A stretch of 64,000 bases of DNA from Rozella allomycis CSF55 (lineage: Eukaryota). Below are positions 8,482 to 56,805 of the stretch, one piece after another (position 1 is the first letter of the stretch; every line of letters begins with the position of its first letter). The translations under genes and the position numbers were made by a program. The stretch covers positions 1-64,000 of the forward strand of contig KE561265.1 of the NCBI GenBank assembly GCA_000442015.1. The letters run 5' to 3'. Below the pieces are notes generated by a model. That model made no database searches and was not told the origin of the DNA. It worked only from the letters and a program-made list of their open reading frames with translations.

Positions 8482-11928
<3,447 letters not shown>

Positions 11929-12217: not shown

Positions 12218-15190
12218 ATGGAATATTATCCGCCCGAAAAGATTAGAAATATCTGCATCTTGGCACACGTAGATCATGGAAAAACTACACTCTCTGATAG
12301 TCTTATAGCTACAAACGGTCTAATCTCTTCAAAAATGGCTGGAAAACTTAGATACCTTGATAGCAGACAAGATGAACAGGAAAAAGGTATTCTTATTATT
12401 AGCACATTATAATAGGTATCAAAATACAATTATATTTATAGGGATCACAATGAAAAGTAGCTCTATCGCTCTAAAATTTTCACTAATGTCGGCAGAGTCG
12501 AAGCAAGGTATATAAACTATGTGAATTTTAATGCAAGATTACATGGTACATGTAGTTGACTCTCCAGGACACATTGATTTCTATGGAGAAGTTTCCGCCG
12601 CGTCCAAACTTTGCGATGGATGTCTAGTTCTAATAGATGTCGTAGAAGGTGTGTGCACACAAGTAATAAAAATCATGTAATAAAATAGACAATATCAGTA
12701 CTACAGCAAGCTCTAAGAGACGATTTAGTGCCAGTTCTTGTCTTGAACAAAATTGATAGATTGATATTAGAATTGAAGCTCACTCCTATGGATGCATTTA
12801 CTAAACTCTGTCAGATTATTGAACAAGTTAATGCACTAACTTTTACATTCATCTCTCATAAGAATGTAAGATCTATCTGTTCTGTTTTCTAGGCGGCAAA
12901 GGAAATCGGAGTCGAAAATTTTGAATCAAGTGTGTACCACTTTTCACCTGCCAAAGGAAACGTTATTTTTGCGAGTGCTATAGATGGTTGGGCTTTTAGA
13001 ATAGAGCATTTTGCTAAATTCTACCATGAAAAGTTGGGCTTCAGCGAATCTGCTCTATGTAAAGCTCTGTGGGGTTACCACTATTTTGATGCAAAAAATA
13101 AGCGTGTTGTTTCCAGGAAGCAGGCTGATGAGATTGGGTTAACAAGACCATTATTCGTACAGTTTATTTTAGAAAATATTTGGCATGTTTATGACACAGT
13201 CATGAGTAGAGTGTAAAAATTGTTGAAAAATATGAAATAGAAACGTTGAAAAGATTGAAAAAATCATTGAAACCTTGAAAATTAAAGTAATTTGATTTCT
13301 TTACTTCGATAGGTTCCCTTAAGGGACTTTAGATCAAAAGAGCCTAAGGTTTTGCTTGAAACAATCTTCCAACAATGGATACCATTGTCCTCGTGTGTTC
13401 TATGTAATGTTTTAAACTTAACCAATAAAGTAACTGTGGTCAAAAAGATACCAAGCCCAAACGCCTTGCAAGAAACAAAGTTCGAAGGCGTTCCTGAATA
13501 CACGAAACAGATGATTAAATCATGCGATAAACAAGGATCGATAATCGCGTACGTTTCAAAGGTAGTATCAGTTCCACTCTCTAACATTCAACTAACCAAA
13601 CCACGTGATTTGTATAATCCAGAGATCTCAATTGCCATGTCGCGCATATTTAATGGAACTATAAGGGTTGGTGATTTTTTAAGCATAATAGATGCAAAGG
13701 GGGAAGTACAAGAATCTCAAATGGTGCATAGCTTGTTCATGTTTATGGGGAAAGATTTGAAGCAAGTTGAGATATTGCCGCCCGGTCATATTGGTGGAAT
13801 ATATTTTGAAAACAATAAAATATTCAAATCGGCAACGCTTACCAATGACAAAAGCGTTTGTTCTTTGGATTTTTCCAATAACCTGCCAAATCCGATTGTT
13901 AGAGTAGCTGTTGAACCAGAAAATCCCAGTATGTTTATGATATTTGAGTTAATAGGCGAATTAGATAAACTTGTTCAAGGGTTGAAACTTTTAAACCAAG
14001 CCGATTCAGTTGTAAATGTTCTAGTGCAAGAAACTGGTGAGCATGTCCTATTGACCGCTGGGGAGTTGCACTTGGAAAGATGCATTCGAGATTTGACAGA
14101 TACATTTGCCAAAATAAAAATTCAAGTTTCTCAGCCAATCATTCCCTACAGGGAAACAATTGTTTCAGAAAGAGGTAAAAATGATCAGATGAAAAAACAT
14201 AAGTGACTGATGAAATAATTGTAGTAAATGAAACGCCGAATCGACAAATTTTATTTAAAATTAGTGCGAAACCCCTTGAGAAGGAAATATCTGAATATCT
14301 ATACGCANACAAGGAAATATCTGAATATCTATATGCAAAAGAAAATGATGAAAAAAGTTCTGTAGACGACTTGAAAAAGAATATTGAAGGCAAAATAGGG
14401 TAGCTGTAATTTTTTCTTTAAATAGGAAACAAATTGTAGCGTTTGGGCCGAAAAAGATAGGAACAAATATATTGACTACTGAGCAGCCGATTGAAAAAGA
14501 TATCGAATCTTCTATAGTGAAAGGATTTCAGATGTGTTGTGAAAAGGGACCTTTGTGTGATGAACCAATGAATGGTGTATTATTTGTAATCCATGAAATA
14601 AATAGAAATGATGTATGCGAAGGTAAAATAATAAAAATGTGACCAAAAGAATCAACTAATTTTGGTCCAATAACAGGACAAATCATCTCCACATGCAGTA
14701 CAGCATTTAGACAAGCATTTCAGAAATGGTCCCCAAGATTGATGTTGGCAATGTACACTTGTGAAATACAAGCTACAAATGAAGTTTTGGGAAAAGTTTA
14801 TAATGTACTTTCGAAAAGAAGAGGACAAATATTAGGTGAGGAAATGAAGGAAGGTAGTTCATTCTATACTATAGAAGCAATGATTCCAATTGTGGAGAGT
14901 TTTGGGTTTGCGGATGAAATGAGGAAAAAGACTTCTGGAAATGCGCATCCACAATTATTGTTTAAAGGCTTTGAGATTCTAGACATAAATCCGTTTTGGA
15001 AGCCAAAGACGACAGAAGAATTGGAAGATTTGGGAGAGAAAGCAGATAAAGAAAACTTAGCTAAAAAATACATGGATCCGGTTCGAAAAAGAAAGGTAGG
15101 CGAAATTCTCAGTGATAAAAATAGGGACTTGCTGTCGAAGAGTTAGTTGTTACTCATGGCGAGAAACAATCCACACTCAAAAGCAAATAA
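12218..15190 (+). CDS. RIA1: Ribosome biogenesis GTPase Ria1/EFL1 (EF-2-like)
   Basis: [51 protein letters not shown] and [12 protein letters not shown] motifs. 12 introns traced; a short duplication at the N near 14308 is an assembly artefact. Confidence 0.93.
12387..12441 (+). other. Compound 55-nt intron made of two abutting GT-AG units (29+26 nt)
   Basis: ag|gtattcttattattagcacattataatag|gtatcaaaatacaattatatttatag|gg. Removal restores the conserved DEQEKGITMKSS. Confidence 0.8.
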
Positions 15191-21364: not shown

Positions 21365-22510
21365 ATGTTAAGGGTTGGCTTAGTAGTCTCGTCATCGGAT
21401 GTTGATTCATATATCCCAAAACATGGAAACAGAGTAGGAAAATAATGATAATGTTTTAGGCATACTTAACCCACAGTCTTATTAAAGGGTATAATGTTCC
21501 TGTTATACCTTTGAAGGCCCCTAAAGCTACAAAGAAAGAACTTTTAAATTTTCACGATGAAGAATATATAGCTGCAATATTTTCTGATGATGAGAATGAG
21601 TGCGAAGGGCTTTTTGGCCTAACATACGATTGCTTTAAGTTCTCTGGTCTAAAGCATTATTGTTGCACAATCGCAGGTGGGTCTATTTATGGCGCAAAAC
21701 AGCTACTGAATGACAATTTGGATACAGTTATTCATTGGGAAGGTGGTAGACACCATGCCTTCAGGTGATGACCAAAAGCACTCAATAAGTTAGAGATTTC
21801 GCTTCTGGATTTTGTTACGTCAATGACATCGCTTTAGCTATTCATGAAATTTTATTAAACATTAAAGGGAATATCCTTTATCTTGATTTAGATGTTCATC
21901 ACGGGGATGGGGTAGAGCACGCCTTCAAATACACTAAACGTGTTACTACTTGCTCTTTCCACCTATTTCATCATGGATACTTTCCTGGGACAGGGTCATG
22001 GGATGATTGCACTAAAGGTTCCATGAATGTGCCTTTTACAGCCGATCAGCATACTTTATGGAAAGATGCTATTCAATACACTATATCTAACTTAATATCT
22101 ATTGTTTCTCCTGAAGTAAGACCTTTATTTTGAATATATTGATTTTGATAATACAGTTTGGCGTTGATACTTTGAAGGGTGATCCTATAGGGCAATGGTG
22201 CATAGATCCATTAACCATTGCTTCTGTAATGAATTTCTTAAATGGGTTTTCAATAAAAAAGATGGTTTTGGGAGGAGGTGGATATAGTCCTTGTGCTACA
22301 GCAAAGGCTTGGGCGATGTTAACTGCCGAGGCATGTCATATATCACTCTCAAATGAAATACCCGTATTTGATGACTGGGATCTATTTTCCAAGGAACCAT
22401 ATTTGTATTCTACAGGCTTTGATCGCACTACTTCTAATCAAGAAGTGGATTTCAAAAGTTCATTTCTGAAAAAACAAATAGATTTATGTTTAATGAAGCA
22501 ACGGAAATAA
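21365..22510 (+). CDS. Class I histone deacetylase (Hos1/HDAC8-like)
   Basis: FGLTYDC, WEGGRHHA, SGFCYVND, YLDLDVHHGDGVE, YFPGTG, QFGVDTLKGDP and LGGGGY motifs. Confidence 0.88.
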
Positions 22511-23494: not shown

Positions 23495-26052
23495 ATGAGC
23501 AACAAATCCTCTAATAAGTCAAGTACCTTGCGTAAAGGAGGAGGTGGCCTGTTGGCAAGACTGGTAAATTTTATCGACATATGACAGCGAGGACGGTCAT
23601 GATTCAACTTCTTTGACTACTTTCGAATCCAAGGATTCTAGATTTTCTGAATTGAACGATGTCGGATTAATTAAGGATGACTCGCCCATAATGTGTCGAT
23701 TGTGTGAAGACACAATTAAAAAGTCGTGTGTTCATGAGCACACTAAGTATTGTGTTCTTATGTGCCAATGTTTCACAAGAATTAATGAATACAACGACCT
23801 CTTATTACATGTATGAATCCCAAACTATTTCGATAATAGGATATAACAGAGATAGGAAAAATAATGTCGAAGAAAGAGTTTGAAGTAAAACAAGTTCTTC
23901 TATTGCGATAGCCATTTGTGCAAGACCTGAAGCAATTAATAAATATATACCAATAGTAGAAAATCATTCGACAACAGATTTAGTTTGTTGGAAATGAAAA
24001 ACGTGGAGTCATCAAATCAAATTAAAATTATGTGGCAAGGCTTTAATTGGTCTAATATCCCTGAAGAAATACCAGATAATGTCTCAAAATATAGAAATAT
24101 CTTGGCGAATCTGGTAATTTAATGAAATGAATAATACAGATTGGAAGCAAAGTACATGTTCTTCGAAAACTCAACTTTTCAACACAAAAGCGAAACGAAG
24201 TAACCTTAAAAACAAGTGAAAACAACGACGCCGAAATTGATACATCTTTGGGAAAAAATCAATCAACTTTTAAAATAGAAGTACGATTTTATGCACAAGT
24301 TTCATTAGATCGAACCTTCTATAAATGATTTTGAATTTGTCAAAAAGCTGAGTAGAGGGGCGTACGGGTAATGATTTGCTCATGTTTAAAAATATAGACG
24401 AGTCTACCTTGCCAAAAAGAAATCAACTGGCGATCATTATGCGGTGAAAGTAATCAGTAAGAGGCACATGAAGAGCAAGGCGGATGTTGAAAGGATATTG
24501 CTGGAAAGAAATATATTAGCGATGGTCGACAATCCTTTTATTGTTAAATTGTTCTATTCTTTTCAAACATTTGATCAACTTTATATGGTGATGGAATATT
24601 TGAATGGAGGGGATCTCTTGTCATTACTTGAAAGTGCTGGGCACTTTGGAGAGTCTTGGGCTCAATTCTATACTGCCGAATTAGTACTTGCTGTAGAACA
24701 TTTACATTCCCTCGGGATAGTACATAGAGATATTAAACCACAGAATCTATTAATAGACAAAAGAGGGCATTTAAAGTTAGCAGATTTTGGGCTTTCGCGA
24801 ATGCGTACATAAATTACTTTTTATTGACATAGATGACTCCACAGTAGTGAAGTAATTTCTATATTTACAAGGATATTACAACAGAGCCAAAAACTGATAT
24901 TGAAATATGGGTCTCAGGTCTCAGATTGAACGACAGAACTTCAGATAATGCTTCATCTGGGTTAATTATGCCCAAAACTAATTCTTTCGTTGGTACTCCG
25001 GAATACCTGGCCCCAGAAATGCTCTTGGGATCAGGATATGGTAAAATGTGAACTTTAATTGTGTTCCTAGATGAATCCGTTGATTGGTGGGATGTTGGAA
25101 TTATTCTATATGAAATACTAGTCGGAAACAATCCATTTTATGATGATGACGTAGAAAAGACTTTCGAAAACATTCTGAGCAGAAGTATGAGCTTAAATTT
25201 TAATTGAAAGAATTTACTTGGCCTAAAGGTGTTTCTTCAAGTGCCATGGACATTCTTGATGGCCTTTTGACAGTTGAACCAAGCGATCGATTAGGGTACA
25301 ATGGTGCGGGAGAGATTAAAAAACATTCATTTTATAACGGAATCGATTGGGACAATATATCTAATGTACAAGCAAGTTTTATTCCCATTCTTGAAGGGAA
25401 TGATGACACTAGATACTTCACAGGCACTCAGTGGAGTCAAGACTCCGTGTTTGAACCTCATGACAATGAAGCAATTGAAGACCCATTTCTTGATTTTACG
25501 TACATAAATGTTAAGCAGCTTAAAGAAGTTACAAAAGATCAGATAAGAAAAAAGGCAATTATAAGAGAGGATTCTCTGAAAACAATCTATAGTGATGACG
25601 TTTTGGGTTCCAATCATAAAATAAAGGATGGCGCAAAAATTCTAGTTGAGAAAAAAGAGCTTTGTTGCTTGATTGCAGAAGACAATCCGATAATTCAAAA
25701 GGTGGCACAAGCCCTGCTAAAGAGCATTGGATTCCAAACAACTTGCGTTGATAACGGACTAAAAGCTGTAGAAGAATGTCAAAAAGTGAAGTTTGATATT
25801 ATTTTCATGGACATAATGATGCCAGGTATAATTATTACTCATTACTCATTAGAAATGGATGGCATAGAAGGAACAAAAATCATCCGTTCAAGCAAAGGAA
25901 TAAATGAAAAGTCTCCTATTGTAGCCTTCTCTGCAATAGGCTCCGATGAAAATCGTAAAGAATTTATCTCTCAAGGATTCAATGATTGGCTTGAAAAACC
26001 CTTCACCAAAAATGATCTTTATAAAATGATCAAGAAATGGATTCACGAATGA
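23495..26052 (+). CDS. RIM15: Rim15/Cek1/Greatwall-like AGC Ser/Thr kinase with N-terminal C2HC finger and C-terminal receiver domain
   Basis: CRLCE...HEHTKYC; kinase motifs PSINDFEF..LSRGAYGRVYLA, HRDIKPQN, DFGLS and FVGTPEYLAPE; receiver domain AEDN...FMDIMMPEMDG...KP. 12 introns. Confidence 0.75.
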
Positions 26053-26238: not shown

Positions 26239-28854
26239 ATGAATTTTATTGCAGATGGATCTTTACTAGAGGAATCCAAAGAAAATATTGTACCAAATCC
26301 TCATGGTCACTCTGCTATTTCGTTGCAATATGCTATTCAACACAAAAATGATTATGCTAAAGAGAAGGCGGAATTCCTTGCCTATATTCAATCTCAAAAG
26401 GAATCTCAAGAATATGAAGATGATCCACTTGACTTGTATTACCAATACATAAAATTTCTTCAAGAGTTTATGGCCACTGGCGCTGTAAATTATCCAGATT
26501 GGATGGAGGGGCTGGAACTAGTTACAAAAGCTTTTGTAGACGATAAAAGGTAATTCTATGCATAATATTTAAAACGATATGCAAATGATATAAGGTACGT
26601 TTATGTTTGGTGTTTGTATGCCAAATGTTGTATAAAACCAGAAGAAGTATTTGAATTCATGCAGTTAAAAGGAATTGGGGAATGCTTGAGTATATTTTAT
26701 GAAAAATATGCAGAATATTTAGCTCAGCGACTGCAAAGGTAAAGCGTGGGAAAGTTAGGCAATTTAGATATAATGATGCCTTGAATATTTTGGATCAAGG
26801 AATTAAATCCAAAGCAAGTCCGTTAAAAAGACTAGTGAAAACTCATGCCGCCTTTTCGTTACAGATCAGTCAGATTCCAACGGAGTCCAAAAAGAGGACC
26901 ATTCAAGGGATAATGCTTGATATGCCTAACCAAGGGAAGAAGAAACAATCTTTTACTGTTTTTCAGGATGAAAAAGAAAGTTATACCAAAGATAATACAA
27001 AGAATTCCTGGTTTAAAACTGCCGATATCTTTTCGAACGAACTACTACACAAAGTAAATCATGCTTGGTTAAATTGATGATAGGAAAATATAAAGCTAAG
27101 TGTACCATGGATGGGCGTGAAAATCCCGCAAAAGAGATCAATATCTGTGGTGCACAAGCCACCAAGTTTTGCGGTTTACAATGATACTCAAAAATATGAA
27201 AGAGATGCTAAATATTTTTCAGCTGAAGAAAAGAGAGCAGAATTTTATTTTTCAAAGAAAGAAACTCTAGTTGTCAAGGAGGCCAAGAAAATGGATGCAG
27301 TCCCATCGCCTACAATTCACACTAAAGAAGCTTTAAAAGATATCATGGGAATGTTTAATGACGAAATAGAAACGAAAGAAGAAACCAAAGAGAAGATTAT
27401 TCAGGACACGCCAAACAATCCCTTTTGTTGTCCTGTAGGGGATGTTGATGAACAAAGGACGAGAAAGAAATTCAAGCCATCAAAATTTGCGATTTTTAAA
27501 GATGCCCAAACACCCGTAAAGACTCCAACTAAACGCGGGACTCTTGAAATTTGTGTCAATTTAAGTACCAAGCAGATAAAGACATTAAAAACTGATATTA
27601 CTGTACCAAAATTGCAAATAGTGCCAGTCGATAAAGATGTAATTCTTTGGAATAATGAATTGATTCAAAGCCATTCAGAGAAAGTTTTACCCTTGATCAA
27701 ATCAGATGCATGCGCCACATTCTATGAATGTGATTTTATTCCTTTTTACGAAAACTTTGAGAAAATGAAGTCAAATTCGATGCCATTTTATTTTAAGCTT
27801 GATAATCATCTATTGTACGCCGTTCAATATAGAATAGGTGAAGGAGGATTCGCATCTGTTTTCATGGCAGATCAAGAAATTACAACACCGACTTCAATGA
27901 ATGCGAATTCGGTAATTTTAAAGCTTCAGAAACCTTCTTGTCTTTGGTAAAGATTTTAACGTCGAGTTGAAAGGGAATTTCACATTTTAAAAAAACTTCA
28001 AGATGAAAACATGCATGTTCCTATTGTTAAATTATTTCAAGGCCATTTCTTTAATCGAATGAGTTGTTTGTCGTTGGAATATTTGGAGCATGGGACAATT
28101 TTAGATTCCATTAATGCATATCGCGCCAAAGGGAATTTTCTCCCTGAACAAATCACTGCTTATTATTCTCTTTGTCTTATTAGAATGATAAAATATTTAA
28201 TTCAAAATAACGTAATTCATTGTGACATCAAAGTACTTTAATTTTTCTTCTTTAATAAGCCCGAAAACATTCTTGTTAGATTCAACGCAGACACTAAAAT
28301 GCCCATGATGGTGAGCGAACACATCGATCCATACATTTTTGATTTATGGTTTCAAAGACACGAATTAGTTTTAATAGACTTTGGAAGATCCATTGATTTG
28401 GATTTGTATTCCCCAACAACTAAATTTAATGTATTCCATGAAGGAATTCATGAAAAGGGAAGCATTGAAAATTTGGTTTCCGCATTTCAAAAAATTCACA
28501 AATCTTGGCAACACGAAGTAGATTTTTTAGGTATGCGAATAAACAATGCTTAATTCAGGTATTGGGAATTCTATTCATTGTCTATTAAGCAATGATTACC
28601 CTGACCTTAAATTAACACCAAATAGATTAGATTTTGAATTTATTCTTAGAAGATCATTAAAATACCCTTGGGAAGTTCTTTTGAATAAGTTAATGCATCC
28701 CCCTTCAGATAAAGGTGAATCTCTTTGTCTACTCAATGATTTGGAAGGAGAATGGAGCATCATTTTGAATTCTGAATGCTTATCAAAACCTTCCTGGCGG
28801 CAAATCCTAAGAAAACACGAAATAGAATTAGTTCAAAAGTTAACTGAAAAATAA
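26239..28854 (+). CDS. BUB1: Spindle checkpoint MadBub (Bub1/Mad3) kinase
   Basis: KEN box (ESKENIVP), TPR region (DDPLD, YANDIRY), GLEBS-like FSAEEKRA, CMI motif PSPTIHTKEA, and kinase motifs GEGGFA, HCDIKPEN and IDFGRS. Confidence 0.92.
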
Positions 28855-39773: not shown

Positions 39774-40904
39774 TTAAAATTGCCAGGGTAAGTACAAAGT
39801 AATATGCCATTTTATTAGTATTCCGTCATCATCACAAGTTACAAATTCGTTTTCTCCTATCCATTTAATGTCGTTTATATCAACTACGGAAGCATTTTCA
39901 TAATATTGCATCAACTCCAAAATTTCCTTCTCCTCGTCGTTTTTACTCTAAAACAATATAAATAATGATATTTACCAATTTATAAATTGAGATACTTCGA
40001 TCAGCGCCAGAGCATACTATCAAATCCGGTCGCCATTTATTCCATGATACACAATAAGCAGGTAATGGAAACATTGTCTCTTTCCCTTCTTTCCCAATTT
40101 TACACTTGATAATATTCTCGTATTCTATTTAAAGATAAATAAAATATTACTCGAATCAATCATCTTAAAAATGGCAATGTTACTGTCTTCAGAAACTGAC
40201 ACAAAATAATCACCAATTGCATTGAAATCAATCGCCCAAACAATGGATTCATGGACTTGTATCACCTGATCACAAAACCATTCGTCATCATTAGGATCTG
40301 CTTTCCAAACTCGAATAGTATTGTCATAACTGCAGGATAACAATATTTCGTCAGACGGGTGCCACAAGACCTTTTTAACGTCTTGAGAATGTTCTTGAAG
40401 AATTGAAAGACACTCAAATTCATTGTCATCTTGTGCTTCCCAAATCCAAACGCTCTTGTCACGACCACAAGTCGCAAGTAACTGTCCGTTAGAATGCCAT
40501 GTTACACATTTCACCTCATTTTCATGGCCCTCCAAAGTCGCAATCAATTCGAAATCTTTTTTTAAAAGATTATCATTGAAATACCATCTTCTAGTTNATC
40601 ATTGAATTACCATCTTCTAGTTCTTTTCGCAAAATATTGCACACACCATCAAAACCACATGACGCAATTTTATTTGGAAAAGGAGAAAAGCATATATTCC
40701 TAACTGTTCTATCATGGGCATTTTCAAATTCGCTCATGATCTCCATCGAAGGGATCTTCCACAAAATAATCTTCTTGTCGGATGAACAAGACAACATATA
40801 TTTGGCATCAAATGATAGAGATAAAGCCCAGGCACATTCGGAATGCGCTAAATTAATTAAATATGACATGTACCTTTGAAAGAATCAACTTTTTCTATGA
40901 GCAT
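39774..40904 (-). CDS. CIA1: Cytosolic Fe-S assembly WD40 protein Cia1
   Basis: [51 protein letters not shown] and SCSYDNT motifs. Confidence 0.93.
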
Positions 40905-42010: not shown

Positions 42011-44091
42011 ATGACCAGAAACATACAAGATTTGATTTCATTCTTTACTAGGAATAAAGACTTTATTCCTCCTAATTATGAAGCAACATTGGATGGTTGG
42101 AAAACATTAACAAATGAAGAAGTGTTAAGAATTCATAACTTTGTTCCATTTTGGGCAGAAGAGTATTTCATCAATATAGTTATTCAAAATTACTTGTATG
42201 ATCATTCAAACGAAGAGGTATTGCAGAGATTGGCTACAACAAAGCCCAAAGTATTTGCTGGATTTATTTCAAGGGAATGGTTGAAGGAAAGTAATATTAA
42301 ATGTCTGTTGAATATTCTATCATTAATATCTGATCATCTTAAACCAGAATTTGTTCTTGAAATCCTGGAAAATGCCATTGAAAGAATAGATGACGAGACT
42401 GTTTTAAAGTCGACAACAGCATATTTAATGAGAAACACGAGTAAATTTAGCGAGGCTCTAGTTTATAAACTCATTGATAATTTGTCTGAGACGCAAGATA
42501 GAAACCTGGTTTATACATTACTACATGTACTANTTATACATTACTACATATCGTAGTCAAAAATAGACCTGAATTTATTTCATTATGGAAAGATTTATTG
42601 CTTCCAAATTTAAGTCTTGACATTGAGATTGAAAAGAGAAAGAAATCATGGATGATATTGTCCATGCTATGCGATAGCAACGATTTTACTGAAAAGGCCT
42701 TGAATATGGATCAAATGGAGTCTATTCTAGAAGATATTGAGTTTGAGAGTGAAGATTGCGTATTAAGTATTCTGAAATGTCTAAATTGTTGGCAAAGAAG
42801 AAAGGAAGCGCGAGAACTTTTAAGTCTAAAATGCAAAGGTTTTTTAAAACAAAAAGTACACATTGAAAAGTACAAAACACTTTCGCTTGTTTGCTTGAGC
42901 AAAATTGAACCAAAGGTTGAGTATTTTAAGCAACTGGTTAGACAGTTTCCTTTGGACAGCAGTAAAGAAGAAATATTAGAAGCATTAGTTGCAGGGTCTT
43001 CTATTGGTGAGATTAAAGAATATTTGTGCAAAGAAATTGAAATATTTTACAGATTTATTGAAAATGATTGTAATGAATCTTTGCATTTAAGTATTTTAAC
43101 AATAATAAACAATATTTGTAATTTTAAACCTATTCTTTCTAAAGAACAAGAAGAAATGAAAAAACTTGCGAAAATTGCAAAACAATTTGTACCAGATGAT
43201 GATGCATTGAATGAGGATGAATTTGTTTCCAAAAGATGTAAAATAATTTTAAAATCCAAAATTCTTTCTTTATTAATAAAAAAGAGCAAATCTGAAGAGA
43301 ATTTGAAGCTCTTTGTAAAGCTCTCGAATTCGATTGTGCGTGATCAAGAAAATAGAAATGAATATGTGAAACAATGCGGAATAAAACACTTACTGAAATC
43401 AATTTCTTTTAATAAAGATGACAATGAAATTGTTAATTTAGCCAGTGTTGCATTAAGCAGAATCTGCATTAGCGTTAATCCAAATTTAGGATTTTCGACA
43501 TCTCAACAACAAGAATTATGCGTTATTTTTAATAATATGTTGAAAACTGAAGATTCTTTGACTTTATTTGAAACTTTGCTGGCGTTGACAAACATGGTTT
43601 CAATTGGCAAAGAAATTCAATCGTTTGTATTTGAAAGAAAAATGCATAAAAATGTTGAGGTTCATTTATTGCATTCTAACGAGAGGATTCAATGTGCTGC
43701 AGCAGAATTCTTTTGCAATTTATCAATGTTTACTCCATTTGTTGAAAGTTGTGCTTCCAGTTCCAAATTGCAATTGTTTGTGTATTTAATGGATGCTCAT
43801 ATGACTGAAACTAGATCAGCTGCTAGTGGATGCCTTGCTATAATGTGTGAACAATCAGACCAAGTATGCCAAGCGTTAGTTAAATGTGATCGTTTCATTA
43901 ACATTTTATCTTTATTAATAAAAGAAGAAAATCATTCTTTAGTTGAGAGAGGGCTTGTAATTCTAGCGTCCTGCGTTCATTATCTTCAGAGAAAAGAAAG
44001 ACTAGAATTTATTCCAATGATTTCCAAAAAGACGTTTGATCCACAAATGAAAGAAATTTTAAATTATTTAAATCAAAATTTAATATTGTAA
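42011..44091 (+). CDS. UCS-domain myosin chaperone (She4/Cro1/UNC-45)
   Basis: KLAKIAKQFVP, ALSRICISVNP, LTLFETLLALTNM, IQCAAAEFFCNL and RSAASGCLA motifs. The N at ~42533 interrupts the gene. Confidence 0.85.
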
Positions 44092-46934: not shown

Positions 46935-49900
46935 ATGGAATCAACGAGTGTCAAAGTGGCGCTCCGGATCCGCCCTTTATCAACGAGCGAACGTCTGAGC
47001 GACTGTTCTGAATGTATATTTGTGCACCCTGACGAAGCGAACCAGGTTGTGTTGGGGCAGAACCGCAGTTTCACGTTTGACCGGGTGTTCCCTAGCGAGA
47101 GTGACCAGAGATATGTGTATGAGGGGGTAGTTGAAGCGATGGTGAAAAAGTTTTGCGAGGGGTATAATGTGACGATCATGGCGTATGGACAGACGTGCAG
47201 TGGGAAGAGTTATACGATGGGGACTAGTTTGGATGGGAATGAGGATGAAGATGCTGGGAGCCAAGGTATGGAGTTGCGTTTGTGGAGAGATAGGTAAGAT
47301 GATGGGAGGGGAATTGTGTAGGTAATTTGGAGGTGGGTGGTAGAGTAGGTGTTATATCGAGGGCGATTGATACGTTGTTTGGGATTGTTGGGGACAAGGA
47401 GCACGAGATGCGAGTTACGTTTGTGGAGCTGTATAATGAAGATATTGTTGATTTGTTTTCGCAAAAGAGCAAGTCGATCCAGATAAGGGAGGATGTGAAT
47501 GGCAGTATAGTGCTTGTTGGAGTGACTGAAGAGAATGTGAGGAATGCGAGTGAAGTGATAGAGTAAAATGAATTTGAAACAAAAAGTAGATTGATGAGAC
47601 GTGGATTGTTGAATCGGAGTACGGGGAGTACTGATATGAATTTGGTGTCATCGCGGTCGCATGCGATATTTAGTGTGTGTTTGAGACAGATGCGTGATGG
47701 AGTGAGTGTGATATCCAAGATGAATTTTGTTGATTTGGCAGGATCTGAGAGATTGAAGCGAACGAATGCGACTGGCGATCGGGCTAGAGAGTCAATTTCA
47801 ATCAACTCTGGACTGTTAGCACTTGGGAATGTGATCTCAGCGCTGGGAGATGAGAGCAGGAGGGGTGGACATGTGCCTTATAGAGATTCCAAGTTGACGC
47901 GACTGTTGCAGGTAACAATGATGAAGTTTGATGAAAGGTAAAAGAAGAGAGGGTGTTAATGAAAGGATTCACTTGGAGGCAATAGTCAGACGTTGATGAT
48001 GGCGTGTGTGTCACCTGCTGATAGTAATTTTATGGAGACGTTGAATACGCTAAAGTATGCGAATAGGGCTAGGAATATAAAGAACAAGGCGATGATTAAT
48101 GAGGAGAAGAGTGAGATTGAGCAGTTGAAGATGCAGATAAGGATGTTGAAGAATGAGGCAGGGAGGGAAAGGAATGTAGAGATTGAAAAGGAGATTAAAG
48201 AGATGAAATTGGCGTTGATTGAAAAGGATGAAAGATTGAAGAGAGTTTTGGAAGAGTTGAAAAAGGTTGAAATAGAAAAGGAGTGTTTGAAGTTGGTTCA
48301 TAAGGGAGAAGATGTAGAAGAAATGATAAAGAAGATTAAAGTTCATGTTGAGCCAATGATTAATGATTACATTAAAGAGATTCAAGAGTTGAAATTTATG
48401 CAAAGTAATGTGAAGAGTGCTAGTAGTAGGGATATGCAAAGCATTAGTAGTACTAGTAGAGATATAAGAAGCAGTGGAGACTCGCCAATTAATGGTAGTG
48501 GGGAATTACTTTTACAGAATAGTTTGATTAATAAGAGTTTAACTTTGAATAAATCTGAGAGTTTTAGTGGAGATTTGATTTCTAGTTTTGAAAGAATAAA
48601 TTTGAATGAGCAAGAGAATAAAGAGAGATTGGAGAGAGTTGAGAATGATATAAATTTAAAAGAGAGATTGGTAGAAAAGTTGAAATTAGATCAAGAAGAA
48701 TATGAAAAGATTATAATTGAAAACACCCGAAAGATGAATGACTTGATGCAAGTTAGAGAAGGCGATGATTTTAATGACAAGTATAACGACAAGGCTAGTC
48801 TCTACAGTCTCAGTACAAACTCTAACCTCAATAACCCTGTTAATAGAAACTTTAAAAGTAATTCATCGAATGCATTGGTTGAATTGAAAAAGAAACATCA
48901 ACAAGTAAAAAGAATAAACTTAAATTAAAAAGGATTTATTGATTGCAATGAAAAAGACAAAGGCAAATGAACAATTGATAGAATCAATGAAGAATTCAAT
49001 ACAAAATCTAAAGAGTGAGAAGATCAAATTAATGAATAAAATTAAGCAAGAAAATAATAAATTTAAATTAATTGAACAAAACAAAGAAATGGAAATTAAA
49101 AGATTGAAAAGAAAAGAAGCAAAACAAAATTCAGAAATTAAAAAATATTTCAGAAATTTAGAAATTAAAAATAATCTACTTGAAAGAAAAAATGAACAAG
49201 TTTTAAACTTTAAAAATAAATTAAAATTAATGTTGAATAGTAAAAAAAGAATTCGCAAAAATAATTTCAAACTAGAAGATTTTGAAGACTTGGGTGGTGA
49301 AAGGGTTAAGAGAGTAGAAAGTGATATTGAGAGAGTAGAAAGGGTAGAAGGTGATAATAAGAGAGTAGAAAGGATAATAGGTGATATTGAAAGGGATAAA
49401 CTTACTAGTGTCAGTGGGAGAGATAAACTCACTAGTGAGAGGGATAAGCCTACACTTAAACAATACCCTTTACCAATGTCTCTTTCATCAACAAATTTAT
49501 CGTTGGCTGATTTGTTGATTAATAATTTAATAAGAGAATTGGATGAATGCGTAAAGATTAAACAACAAGATCAATTAATGAATGAAATGATTAGATTCAG
49601 AGAAAGATTAGTTTCAGAAAGAAATAAATTACTTGATAAAATTTATAATGGAAAAAAAGATTTAAATCTAGAAAAAGATCTAGAAAAAGATTTGGAAATT
49701 TTAAATTCTCAAATTTCTTTTCTAACAAATGAAAAAATTAAAGAAATTCAAAATGAAATTTGTTTAAATTCTAATTATTCTTCTTTTGATGATTCTCTTT
49801 CTAATCTAATAAATATTCTCAAATCTCTATCTGTCAAAGAAGCTGATGAAATATTCAGATTCATCATTGAAGAAATTGTTAATCTCAAAATATCTGAAAA

Positions 49901-51194
49901 GACTTTGGAAATGACAATCAAATCTTTAAAAGAAGCCATCAAAGGTAGTGAAGTAGGAATTAGTGGGGAGGGTGAAGGTGAACTAGGTGAGGGAAGAGAA
50001 GGGGTAAGTGAGGGAAGAGAAGGGATAGAAGTGGATGCAACGGTAAGTGGAAGGTTATCAAGTGAAGGAGTAAGTGGAAGTGTAAGTCAAGAAGTGACGC
50101 GTGAACCTCTTCTTCATGATTATTCTACAACTGTAGAATCTTTGAATAAAAAAGTTAAAAAACCTTCTATTAAAACTTCTTCTATTGATCCTTCTAAATG
50201 GGATTGTAAATCTATTCTAAAAGGTCACATTGGTCAGGTTTATTCTCTATTCTATAACAATGATAATAAATTATATTCAACTTCTCAAGATTCTTCTCTA
50301 AACATCTGGGATTTGGATTCTGGAAATTTACTAAATTCTATTTCATTCAAAGAAGGGCCAATTAAATGTCTCAAAATAATAAACAATCTCCTAATCATCG
50401 GTCATCAATCTTTCATCAAATTATTTGATCTATCCTCTCTAAAATTAATAAAACAATTATCTCTCCACTCAAATGACATTGAATGCTTCTCTCTAAACAA
50501 CAACAATTCCATTCTATTCTCTGGCTCTTCTGATTCTACAATCTCTATTCTAGATCTCAATTCTTTCAATTGTCTAAACACTCTCTCAAATCACAAAAGT
50601 TCAGTCTTTTCTCTTCAATCTCACAACTCTTATTTATTCTCTGCGTCTAGAGACCATTCTGTTAAACTCTACAATTTAAATTCTTTCGAGTACATTTCCA
50701 CTCTCTATCCTCCTCACTACGATGCTGTCCAATCTTTATGCATCTCTCAAAATTATCTCTACAGTGGATCGCGTGACTATTCTCTCAAAGTTTGGGATTT
50801 AAATCACATAAACAATGCTATTGATAATAATTCAGTTGCTGTTAATTCACCCATTAAAGATTCAAAGTCTTTTACTTTTGATGACGCTATTCCCAAAAGC
50901 ACATCTAATCAAATTACATCTAATCCTCTTTTAATTCCCATCAAACAAACAATATATTCAGCTCACAAAGATTGGATCAAAACTATCATTCCTTTTCACA
51001 AACAGAATCACATTGTTTCAGCATCTAGAGATGGTATTATAAAACTATGGGATACTACAAATCAATCAACTCTGGTTCATGAACAGCCCCTTCACTCTGC
51101 TTCTATAAATGATCTTTGTTTGTTAAATTCAACCCTGGTAGCTTCATGCTCTTCTGACAGAACTATAAAGATTTGGAAACCCAATCAATTGTGA
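46935..51194 (+). CDS. Kinesin-4 family KIF21-like motor (motor + coiled coil + WD40)
   Basis: [31 protein letters not shown] and [19 protein letters not shown] motor motifs; C-terminal WD40 repeats including PPHYDAV and AHKDWI. Confidence 0.9.
47266..47348 (+). other. Compound 83-nt intron made of three abutting GT-AG units (28+28+27 nt)
   Basis: ag|gtatggagttgcgtttgtggagagatag|gtaagatgatgggaggggaattgtgtag|gtaatttggaggtgggtggtagagtag|gt. Removal gives SQGVISRAI, the kinesin GIIPRA motif. Confidence 0.78.
47912..47965 (+). other. Compound 54-nt intron made of two abutting GT-AG units (26+28 nt)
   Basis: ag|gtaacaatgatgaagtttgatgaaag|gtaaaagaagagagggtgttaatgaaag|ga. Removal restores RLLQDSLGGNS. 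Confidence 0.82.
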
Positions 51195-55318: not shown

Positions 55319-56805
55319 TTAAATGGTTTTATTATCGTTATCGGAATCAATATTTCTTAAACAGAGATTATTATTATCGTTATTAAAGCTTTGAAGGGCG
55401 AACACCCCATTCAAATTTATGTGGTCCACAGCGACATGGGAAATGACGGGTCGCCTTGTTAATTGAGGTCTTAGGAATACTTCCACGGCGATATCAATAA
55501 GGACTAAATTAGATTAAATTATTGAAATACCTTGAATCAAGCTGAATCCTGTGGTGATTCCCAATAAACCATAGGTGTCATTCTCTACCCATATCATCGA
55601 TAGCAGTATTATAGAAGTTATAAATCTCGACACATAAACGATTATAGATCTCTTCTCTATCATGAATTTAATCAGCAAATTACGCGTTAATTGTTTCGAA
55701 GCGAATCCGGCAATTATTTTGACGCATGCGTTTACAAAGAATAACAACGATCCTACAACGCAAAAATGAATAACTGTGGAGATACTCGGTTCCAGCGGAT
55801 AATATCTATAAACATCAACAATAACAACGCTAAACATTAGATGAAACAGGTGCAAAGGTAAATGCACAAAAATCCAGGCACTTGTTGCCATTTTACCTTC
55901 ATGAATAAAGTCTTCACGCATATCATTAAAGTATATCCACCATAAGGCGAATGTTATTACTGTTCCTAATGCAACTAAACCCCTTAAGACTACTAAGTTA
56001 GTCTTTTTACCACTTTGCGAGAGATAATGATTCCTCTTTCGAGTAAGCCCAAAGTAGATTCATTACATTTTCACCGAGAAAAATAATTGTCATTAAGCCA
56101 AATCTTTCAGGCAAATGGCTTTTTGCGAAGGTCAACTGGCCTAACCATAACGTAAGGAATTACTTTTCTTGTTTTTTCTCCCTCTAGTATTTGGATGATA
56201 GCTTGTATCCCTATGGATATAAACCAAACTATTATGTTGTATGGCATTGGAATGAAAATAGAAGTAGTCCAAAATGCTATAGAAAAGAAATGATTTAAAC
56301 ATTGTTTTAATGCAAATAATTTTGCATTTTTTACATATATACCAACCAATCCATAATTTACGAACAATGTAAACTGTATCGTTATGAACGAGATAGAATA
56401 AAATATTCTCATTGAATCGTTTTCGGTGGCATATTTTATAGAACCTGCAAATGCTGTGACAGCCAGCATTTGAATAAGCAAAATAAATCGATGGTAAAGA
56501 TCATCAATATCAAAGCGGCAAGAAAAGATGGTAACCTGGAACCAGGACCACCAAACAGGCACAAAGACAAATGTAAAGTCAATTAACCCTTCATTGGTTA
56601 TTATCGAGTCTCTTTTTGACAATTTACTGAAAACAGCTACGAAGAATATGTCATAGAATAGCTCCATCCATGTGGCGCGTCGATCTTCGTCAACTTCTGT
56701 TTCTTGACATTCCTCATTTAAATCGTACGAGGGTAAGCTAATAAGTAATATTTTTTTAGTTTTCTATTACCCGAAAAGTTTTTGCAAATTGGTTTGGAAA
56801 GACAT
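55319..56805 (-). CDS. Low temperature requirement A (LtrA)-family membrane protein
   Basis: RATWMELFYDIFFVA, WWSW...FSCRFD and HLPERFGLMTIIFLGE motifs; multiple TM segments; 4 introns. Confidence 0.85.

Follow-up and report, generated by a model that had tools for sequence, protein, structure and literature searches.

An 83-nucleotide block in a Rozella allomycis kinesin gene with the anatomy of three abutting mini-introns

The window analyzed here is a 64-kb stretch of DNA from Rozella allomycis CSF55 (contig KE561265.1, positions 1 to 64,000), which carries on its plus strand a kinesin gene (46938-51194) whose motor domain is interrupted at 47266-47348 by a block of 83 nucleotides (nt). 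Three units, 28, 28, and 27 nt long and each running from GTA to TAG, follow one another in the block with no exon between them; these exact boundaries, proposed in an earlier note made from the letters alone, were confirmed in the sequence. On this anatomy, the block probably represents three autonomous, ultra-short spliceosomal introns, which share dual TAG/GTA junctions and would be removed one after another. It belongs to a class of four homology-supported arrays in three genes of the window (83 and 54 nt in the kinesin gene, 89 nt in a USP7-like gene, and 55 nt in a Ria1/EFL1-like gene), which suggests that the organism removes longer intervening sequence piece by piece.

The two internal TAG/GTA junctions lie at 47293/47294 and 47321/47322. 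Exon 1 ends in AAG, and its joining to the GTAAG of unit 2 or to the GTAAT of unit 3 produces donors that are typical for the window. The reading frame is kept when all 83 nt, or only the first 56 nt, are taken out, and every other combination of units runs into stop codons. The public protein P0002 and nine fungal orthologues continue there without interruption, which shows that the whole block is absent from the protein; removal was found to restore frame and protein for the block as a whole. Its composition is extreme (38 G, 24 T, 20 A, and a single C), with a pyrimidine fraction of 0.25-0.36 per unit and of 0.25-0.33 at positions -14 to -3, and neither CTRAY nor YTRAY occurs in any of the three units. 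No sign of RNA structure was detected in the block (z = +0.74), and an Rfam search of the window returned two tRNAs only. The best ungapped matches of the three units elsewhere in the 64-kb window cover 17-19 of 27-28 nt; since no copies were found there, the units do not qualify, within the window, as members of an introner-like or mobile family, which would have similar copies at other loci.

The identity of the gene was established from several sides. Pfam PF00225 (Kinesin) matches all four reading-frame pieces of the motor, which also matches the KIF4 structure 3zfc (mouse or human) with an E value of 1e-88 and KIF7 with one of 2e-81, and protein-search matches carry the name KIF21 in their sources. 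WD40 families were detected on the last exon; as in KIF21, the motor is followed by a coiled coil and, at the C terminus, by a WD40 propeller. With its P-loop, switch I, switch II, and WD40 propeller, the predicted product is that of a KIF4/KIF21-like kinesin (Kinesin-4 group). The full protein is estimated from exon coordinates at ~1360 residues, of which P0002 represents a fragment. The switch I, switch II, and neck motifs are all preserved, with 57-64% identity to fungal orthologues. In the P-loop (47160-47190), C stands in place of the orthologue-consensus G, and S in place of T, the other motor motifs being intact. The coiled-coil exon contains a repeat of 30-nt period at 49314-49390 (2.6 copies, 82% matches, no N); short in-frame tandem duplications occur in coding sequence here.

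P0002 (294 residues, named Rozella allomycis CSF55) is 99% identical to exon 3 of the window gene, and a neighboring gene is 98% identical to P0122, a USP7-type protease of Rozella allomycis CSF55. Long reading frames in the window are open under the standard code, which excludes a ciliate, and the protein-search matches to Rozella exclude a dicyemid or myxozoan origin. The contigs behind the two public proteins measure 7.7 and 18.4 kb, and ~1% of residues differ between these proteins and the window: 9 of 1053 residues differ in USP7, as counted from the mapping, and directly upstream of the block (47230-47250), the window reads N-E-D-E-D where P0002 reads N-D-D-G-D. Judged by these differences, the window is another assembly, haplotype, or very close strain relative to the public Rozella proteins.

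The block was placed in loop L5 of the motor; its position just before the G-V-I-S-R-A helix agrees with the earlier note. Two acceptors are available at its 3′ end. P0002 has one extra V before the G-V-I-S motif, which fits the upstream AG at 47345. A 24-nt unit ending there scores 4.6 bits (4th percentile), compared with 11.1 bits for the 27-nt unit ending at 47348, and the fungal orthologues lack a hydrophobic residue at the place of this V. Acceptor 47348 is the better choice, because the orthologues and the splice score both fit it, in line with the site named at the outset.

Unit 3 is in frame and stop-free, and translation of the combinations agrees that its retention would add the nine residues GNLEVGGRV. 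It is therefore conceivable, but improbable on the sequence, that only units 1 and 2 (56 nt) are intronic and that unit 3 is coding, always or in some transcripts, lengthening L5 by nine residues. The composition of unit 3 is like that of the flanking G-rich exons, L5 is a variable surface loop, and frame logic cannot separate a stop-free intron of 3n nucleotides from an exon. A retained unit 3, being stop-free and of 3n length, would escape frame-based surveillance. The loop spans 9-16 residues in the nine orthologues (counted on alignment A1, from the P-loop helix to G-(I/V)-(V/I)-(P/S)-R), and in the window protein it has 15 residues after full removal and 24 with unit 3 kept. A 24-residue loop exceeds that of all nine aligned orthologues and of KIF4, which counts against a constitutive insert; moreover, unit 3 is a full GTA...TAG unit at the modal intron length, scores 11.1 bits, and is removed in the public model.

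The units resemble the ordinary introns of the window. Mapping of P0122 onto the USP7-like gene revealed removed blocks of 26, 27, 30, 28, 89, 26, 31, and 28 nt, and those of the Ria1/EFL1-like gene measure 55, 30, 26, 27, 28, 26, 29, 26, and 27 nt. For Ria1, where the protein search returned no Rozella model, collinearity with three orthologues (P0331, P0332, and P0247) over 860-870 residues, once the blocks are removed, served instead. Sixteen single introns are validated, either through a public model or through collinearity with orthologues (seven in USP7, one in the kinesin gene, and eight in Ria1/EFL1); all of them are 26-31 nt long, and the units of the arrays fall within this range in ten of ten cases. 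A custom gene finder predicted 114 single introns of 22-34 nt, of which 108 begin with GTA; among the 114, position -3 holds T 55 times, A 42 times, C 12 times, and G 5 times, and the interiors are 37% A and 39% T. CTRAY was present in only 9 of these 114 introns and YTRAY in 43. The absence of branch and pyrimidine signals thus characterizes the genome and not the block, and an ordinary intron here is marked by little beyond GTA, (T/A)AG, and spacing. The lack of a pyrimidine tract and of CTRAY, to which attention had been drawn, thus holds for all three units and is the norm in this DNA rather than a peculiarity, and the proposal that splice sites and spacing define the units fits the window-wide pattern, which comprises GTA and a weak (T/A)AG but neither a branch nor a pyrimidine consensus. 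A splice model combining ends, length, and interior assigned the three units 12.0, 10.3, and 11.1 bits, against a mean of 11.9 (standard deviation 3.8) for true single introns.

The strong G-richness reported for the block was confirmed in its count, and proved to be regional, being common to the flanking exons. The interior G fraction of the three units (0.45-0.52) lies above that of all 114 predicted introns, with pyrimidines at the 2nd-5th percentile. From ~47000 to 48700 on the plus strand, G makes up 30-40% and C 7-10% of the coding strand, whether in exons or in introns, and the G-richness of the units follows that of their surroundings. Introns in this domain show no compositional contrast to the exons. 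A second such domain lies at ~10350-11850 on the minus strand, in the 5′ half of the USP7-like gene. Both domains are ~1.5 kb long, occupy the 5′ halves of their genes, and have a GC skew of +0.5 to +0.7, and they are absent from the other genes of the window. As a guess, a strand-asymmetric mutational process might be their cause.

All four homology-supported removed blocks of at least 50 nt split exactly into GTA..AG units. The second array of the kinesin gene splits the invariant motif L-L-Q / D-S-L-G-G, and the 55-nt array of Ria1/EFL1 splits the conserved GTPase motif D-E-Q-E-K-G / I-T-M-K. The expectation by chance was estimated by dinucleotide-preserving shuffles of each block interior (20000 trials each), a shuffle being scored as splittable when it could be divided into GTA..AG units of 22-34 nt. 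This was the case in 26 of 20000 trials for the 83-nt kinesin block and in 4 of 20000 for the 89-nt USP7 block, and in 287 and 1282 of 20000 for the 54-nt kinesin and 55-nt Ria1 blocks, respectively. Arrays of at least three units occur twice in the window, compared with a mean of 0.073 in 300 shuffles, only one of which reached two. For the bare two-unit pattern there is no enrichment (9 cases versus 6.4 ± 2.8 in the shuffles, 58 of 300 of which reached 9); the two-unit arrays rest on homology and not on pattern alone.

The raw two-unit search gave nine matches, four of them supported and five false or unsupported. The second "unit" at 28531-28589 is exon by frame, the first at 10426-10374 is exon in the P0122 mapping, and the match at 21530-21478 is antisense to an HDAC-like gene; at 42196-42244 and 63771-63711, the gene models do not take out the full two-unit block. 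A 55-nt "intron" in a CIA1-like gene (40610..40556, minus strand) was also set aside: inside it, an N marks the join between two copies of a 26-nt direct repeat, so that an assembly join is probable here and the true intron probably measures 29 nt. Such joins recur in the window: six of twelve single-N positions (14308, 30175, 40597, 59904, 42533, and 12108) lie at joins of short direct repeats, with periods of 30, 98, 26, 17, 23, and 23 nt, respectively. These repeats look like unmerged assembly overlaps, which would have left spurious duplications in the Ria1-like, Cdc7-like kinase, CIA1-like, and ABC1-like genes.

In the proposed mechanism, each internal TAG/GTA would serve one unit as its acceptor and the following unit as its donor, and so amount to a zero-length exon. 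Excision of any unit would recreate an AG/GTA junction; the order of excision would not matter, larger in-register steps could occur as well, and the mRNA would always be the same, with 47265 joined to 47349. Since stepwise removal would leave only this junction in mature mRNA, missing internal junctions in poly(A) RNA would be no refutation, as the earlier note had taken them to be. The strongest argument that the internal sites are in use is that the unit interiors have drifted to background similarity, whereas the junctions and unit lengths are intact: no similarity beyond composition was detected among the three units of the 83-nt block, and in the other arrays, likewise, junctions and unit lengths are intact and interiors diverged.

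The same observations bear on the view that a single ordinary intron, 83 nt (or 80 nt) long, is excised in one step from the donor at 47266 to 47348 or 47345, with the internal TAG/GTA junctions being unused relics of duplication or coincidences. Such an intron would give the same mature product and is compatible with P0002. For this block, it would call for a chance event with odds of about 1 in 1000, and three more arrays would each need a comparable one. It would also leave both junctions and all unit lengths intact amid interiors diverged to background, and would place ten of ten units by chance in the length range of the validated single introns. No homology-supported block of at least 50 nt is unsplittable, the CIA1-like exception being the probable assembly join. 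We consider single-step removal unlikely, though it is the most serious of the competing explanations.

Several points weigh against unit-by-unit excision, and some of them favor a single step. P0002 and P0122 are computational predictions, in which one 83-nt intron and three short ones would look the same. Only one 64-kb window was sampled, and its three validated genes were partly chosen for their arrays. The concentration of predicted introns at 26-29 nt (90 of 114) was obtained with a length prior favoring 22-33 nt, so that only the shape inside this range is informative; a version of the gene finder without the prior merged mini-introns with small exons and was replaced. A test of stop-free introns of 3n length (0/35) was not used, as the gene finder reads such introns as exon. 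Among 163 decoys examined, one in the kinesin exons (10.4 bits) narrowly tops unit 2, and two others (10.2 and 9.9 bits) fall just under it. The modeled features, therefore, do not fully specify splicing, and, if the gene model is right, good-looking sites in exons can be ignored. One single intron, in a BUB1-like gene (26550-26594), probably measures 45 nt on reading-frame evidence, which indicates some tolerance for longer units and a length that is not rigid. Finally, the duplicate in the USP7 array could conceivably be an assembly artefact, like the other short repeats at single-N joins, although the USP7 repeat contains no N.

The same assembly artefacts enter into a further reading, that the block is unspliced and marks a pseudogene or an error of local assembly. 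The duplications at single-N positions and the C of the P-loop are in its favor. The block itself has no N and no internal repeat, all exons are open, the switch and neck motifs are conserved to the extent given above, the C-terminal frame of 756 residues with its WD40 repeats is intact, and a second, slightly divergent assembly encodes the same protein. This reading is, therefore, very improbable.

As for their origin, the arrays most likely arise by tandem duplication of a mini-intron between flanking AGGT microhomologies, and would persist because the extra copy is spliced out. Every array junction reads AG/GT, which places a short direct repeat around each unit, and these repeats may be microhomologies of the kind that favor slippage by exactly one unit. 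Units 1 and 2 of the USP7 array are identical at 27 of 31 positions (Tandem Repeats Finder: period 31, 2.2 copies, 89% matches) and apparently represent a fresh tandem duplication of a whole intron. The similarity within the 54-nt kinesin pair is marginal, as ~3-4% of controls reach its score. The 83-nt array may likewise stem from duplication. Loss of small exons between introns cannot explain the 54-nt kinesin and 55-nt Ria1 arrays, because these interrupt invariant contiguous motifs; for the array in loop L5, exon loss could still account for the arrangement.

In the BUB1-like gene (26536-26600, plus strand), the intron ends with ~14 nt similar to a segment made up of the donor and the 14 nt of exon before it (~14 of 20 identical, an estimate), which hints at an intron origin via tandem duplication of an AGGT-containing exon segment. 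The Ria1/EFL1-like gene has, within 13213-13312, a 46-nt micro-exon (13241-13286) between introns of 28 and 26 nt. A 41-nt intron proposed by the gene finder in the HDAC-like gene (22116-22156) was rejected, as it would delete residues aligned to HDAC8. No normal-sized GT-AG intron joins the two frames there (22100-22160, plus strand), and the homology to HDAC8 needs an exon start by 22139; the junction is either a 17-nt GT-AG gap (22104-22120) or an assembly frameshift. The parts of the kinesin gene and the other two arrays are listed in Table 1. Two further genes of the window were recognized by Pfam matches only: a protein kinase gene with a C-terminal response-regulator receiver domain (24390-26049, plus strand), and a gene matching the bacterial LtrA family (55514-56763, minus strand).

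Table 1. Parts of the kinesin gene, and mini-intron arrays in two other genes of the window. Bits are splice-model scores; percentiles refer to the 114 predicted single introns.
Feature	Position	Strand	Evidence and remarks
Kinesin exon 1	46938..47265	+	Start codon, P-loop, first part of loop L5; Pfam Kinesin 1-96; P0002 maps 47064-47264
Unit 1, candidate 28-nt GTA..TAG mini-intron	47266..47293	+	12.0 bits, 43rd percentile
Unit 2, candidate 28-nt GTA..TAG mini-intron	47294..47321	+	5′ boundary TAG/GTA, putative acceptor and donor; 10.3 bits, 27th percentile
Unit 3, candidate 27-nt GTA..TAG mini-intron	47322..47348	+	11.1 bits, 33rd percentile; not in P0002 or orthologue alignment
Tandem acceptor GAG/TAG	47343..47348	+	Upstream AG at 47345, downstream AG at 47348
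Kinesin exon 2	47349..47562	+	Pfam Kinesin 99-178; P0002
Single 27-nt mini-intron	47563..47589	+	P0002 contiguous over junction; 13.5 bits
Kinesin exon 3, switch I and switch II region	47590..47911	+	99% identical to P0002
Second array, 26+28 nt	47912..47965	+	Junction AAG/GTA at 47937/47938; P0002 and all orthologues contiguous
Kinesin exon 4, motor end and coiled coil	47966..48904	+	Open reading frame; Pfam Kinesin 289-327
Single 28-nt mini-intron	48905..48932	+	Reading-frame joining only
Kinesin exon 5, coiled coil and C-terminal WD40 propeller	48933..51194	+	756-residue open reading frame; WD40 families
USP7-like array, 31+31+27 nt	9757..9845	-	P0122 omits exactly 89 nt; no N nearby
Ria1/EFL1-like GTPase array, 29+26 nt	12387..12441	+	Collinear with P0331, P0332, and P0247 once removed

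Among known mechanisms, recursive splicing at zero-length exons comes closest. Zero-nucleotide exons, or ratchet points, are described for Drosophila (bioRxiv 10.1101/006163), for human, and for two cases in S. pombe (bioRxiv 10.1101/226894). As presented there, a 3′ splice site abuts a 5′ splice site (AG/GT) inside the removed segment, the donor is regenerated, and no trace is left in the mRNA. In the Rozella block, too, AG and GT are juxtaposed within the removed segment, and the donor would be regenerated after the first step. The known cases concern long introns, which measure hundreds of nt in S. pombe and are described as large in Drosophila, and use canonical signals, whereas the Rozella block totals 83 nt, has no pyrimidine tract or branch consensus, and would be removed in steps that are each a complete, normal-sized intron of 27-28 nt; no long intron is subdivided, and the stepwise removal is deduced here from sequence.

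Two other systems share parts of this anatomy. Dual-specific AGGT sites and a repeat-expansion model of intron creation have been described for human UBC and VCX3A (PMC10809524): the motif serves as donor or acceptor, and in-register splicing of tandem repeats makes expansion harmless. In UBC, the repeated segments are coding ubiquitin monomers, and splicing varies their copy number, whereas the Rozella units are non-coding mini-introns, all of which must go. The stwintrons, complex intervening sequences of fungi, are removed by consecutive standard splicing reactions, and duplication of a donor element has been proposed as their origin (PMC7138796). They are nested, the internal intron interrupting the donor, branch site, or acceptor of the external one, whereas the Rozella units abut, each with its own intact GTA and TAG.

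Ultra-short introns are documented for Paramecium and Nyctotherus (~25 nt), Stentor (15-16 nt), and dicyemids and myxobolid myxozoans (22-27 nt) (PMC13644364, PMC6543705, PMC6736024). In these genomes, intron lengths form a narrow peak below 30 nt, the splice signals have shrunk to GTA (5′) and AG (3′), and neither a branch site nor a pyrimidine tract is clear. The three Rozella units likewise have the GT and AG ends of U2-type introns and lack a recognizable branch site and polypyrimidine tract, and they fall in the length range of the genome's own introns. In its introduction, PMC13644364 attributes earlier reports of introns below 30 bp to ciliates, Microsporidia, and Dicyemida, and Rozella is not named in that passage. 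A text on the Rozella S23 gene contains a passing remark on putative introns of ~30 nt without motifs (PMC6349667). Abutting mini-introns in Rozella, or in any lineage with ultra-short introns, were not described in the literature searched, which did not include the Rozella genome paper (Curr Biol 2013) or the supplements of PMC13644364.

The arrays also invite a broader and more tentative model, which we regard as possible and less probable than the existence of the three introns themselves. The spliceosome of this organism might measure a short, near-fixed distance between splice sites, with excisions of more than ~45 nt being rare or impossible. Longer intervening sequence would then consist of abutting mini-introns, removed recursively via dual AG/GTA junctions, and tandem duplication of introns would be routine and selectively invisible. 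If this model is true, the lengths of removed blocks would be periodic genome-wide (~27, 55, and 83 nt), and purifying selection would act on the internal junctions while leaving the interiors of the units free to change.

If the units are excised singly, the block would represent recursive splicing at the smallest scale yet described, and would provide direct evidence that the distance between splice sites is a primary recognition signal in an ultra-short-intron genome. The units have no compositional contrast to their exons, no pyrimidine tract, and no branch consensus. Gene finders with a conventional minimum intron length will mis-model such genes. Duplication between AGGT junctions would offer a simple route for introns to multiply without exons, and Rozella, a sister lineage of Microsporidia, would join the short list of lineages with introns below 30 nt.

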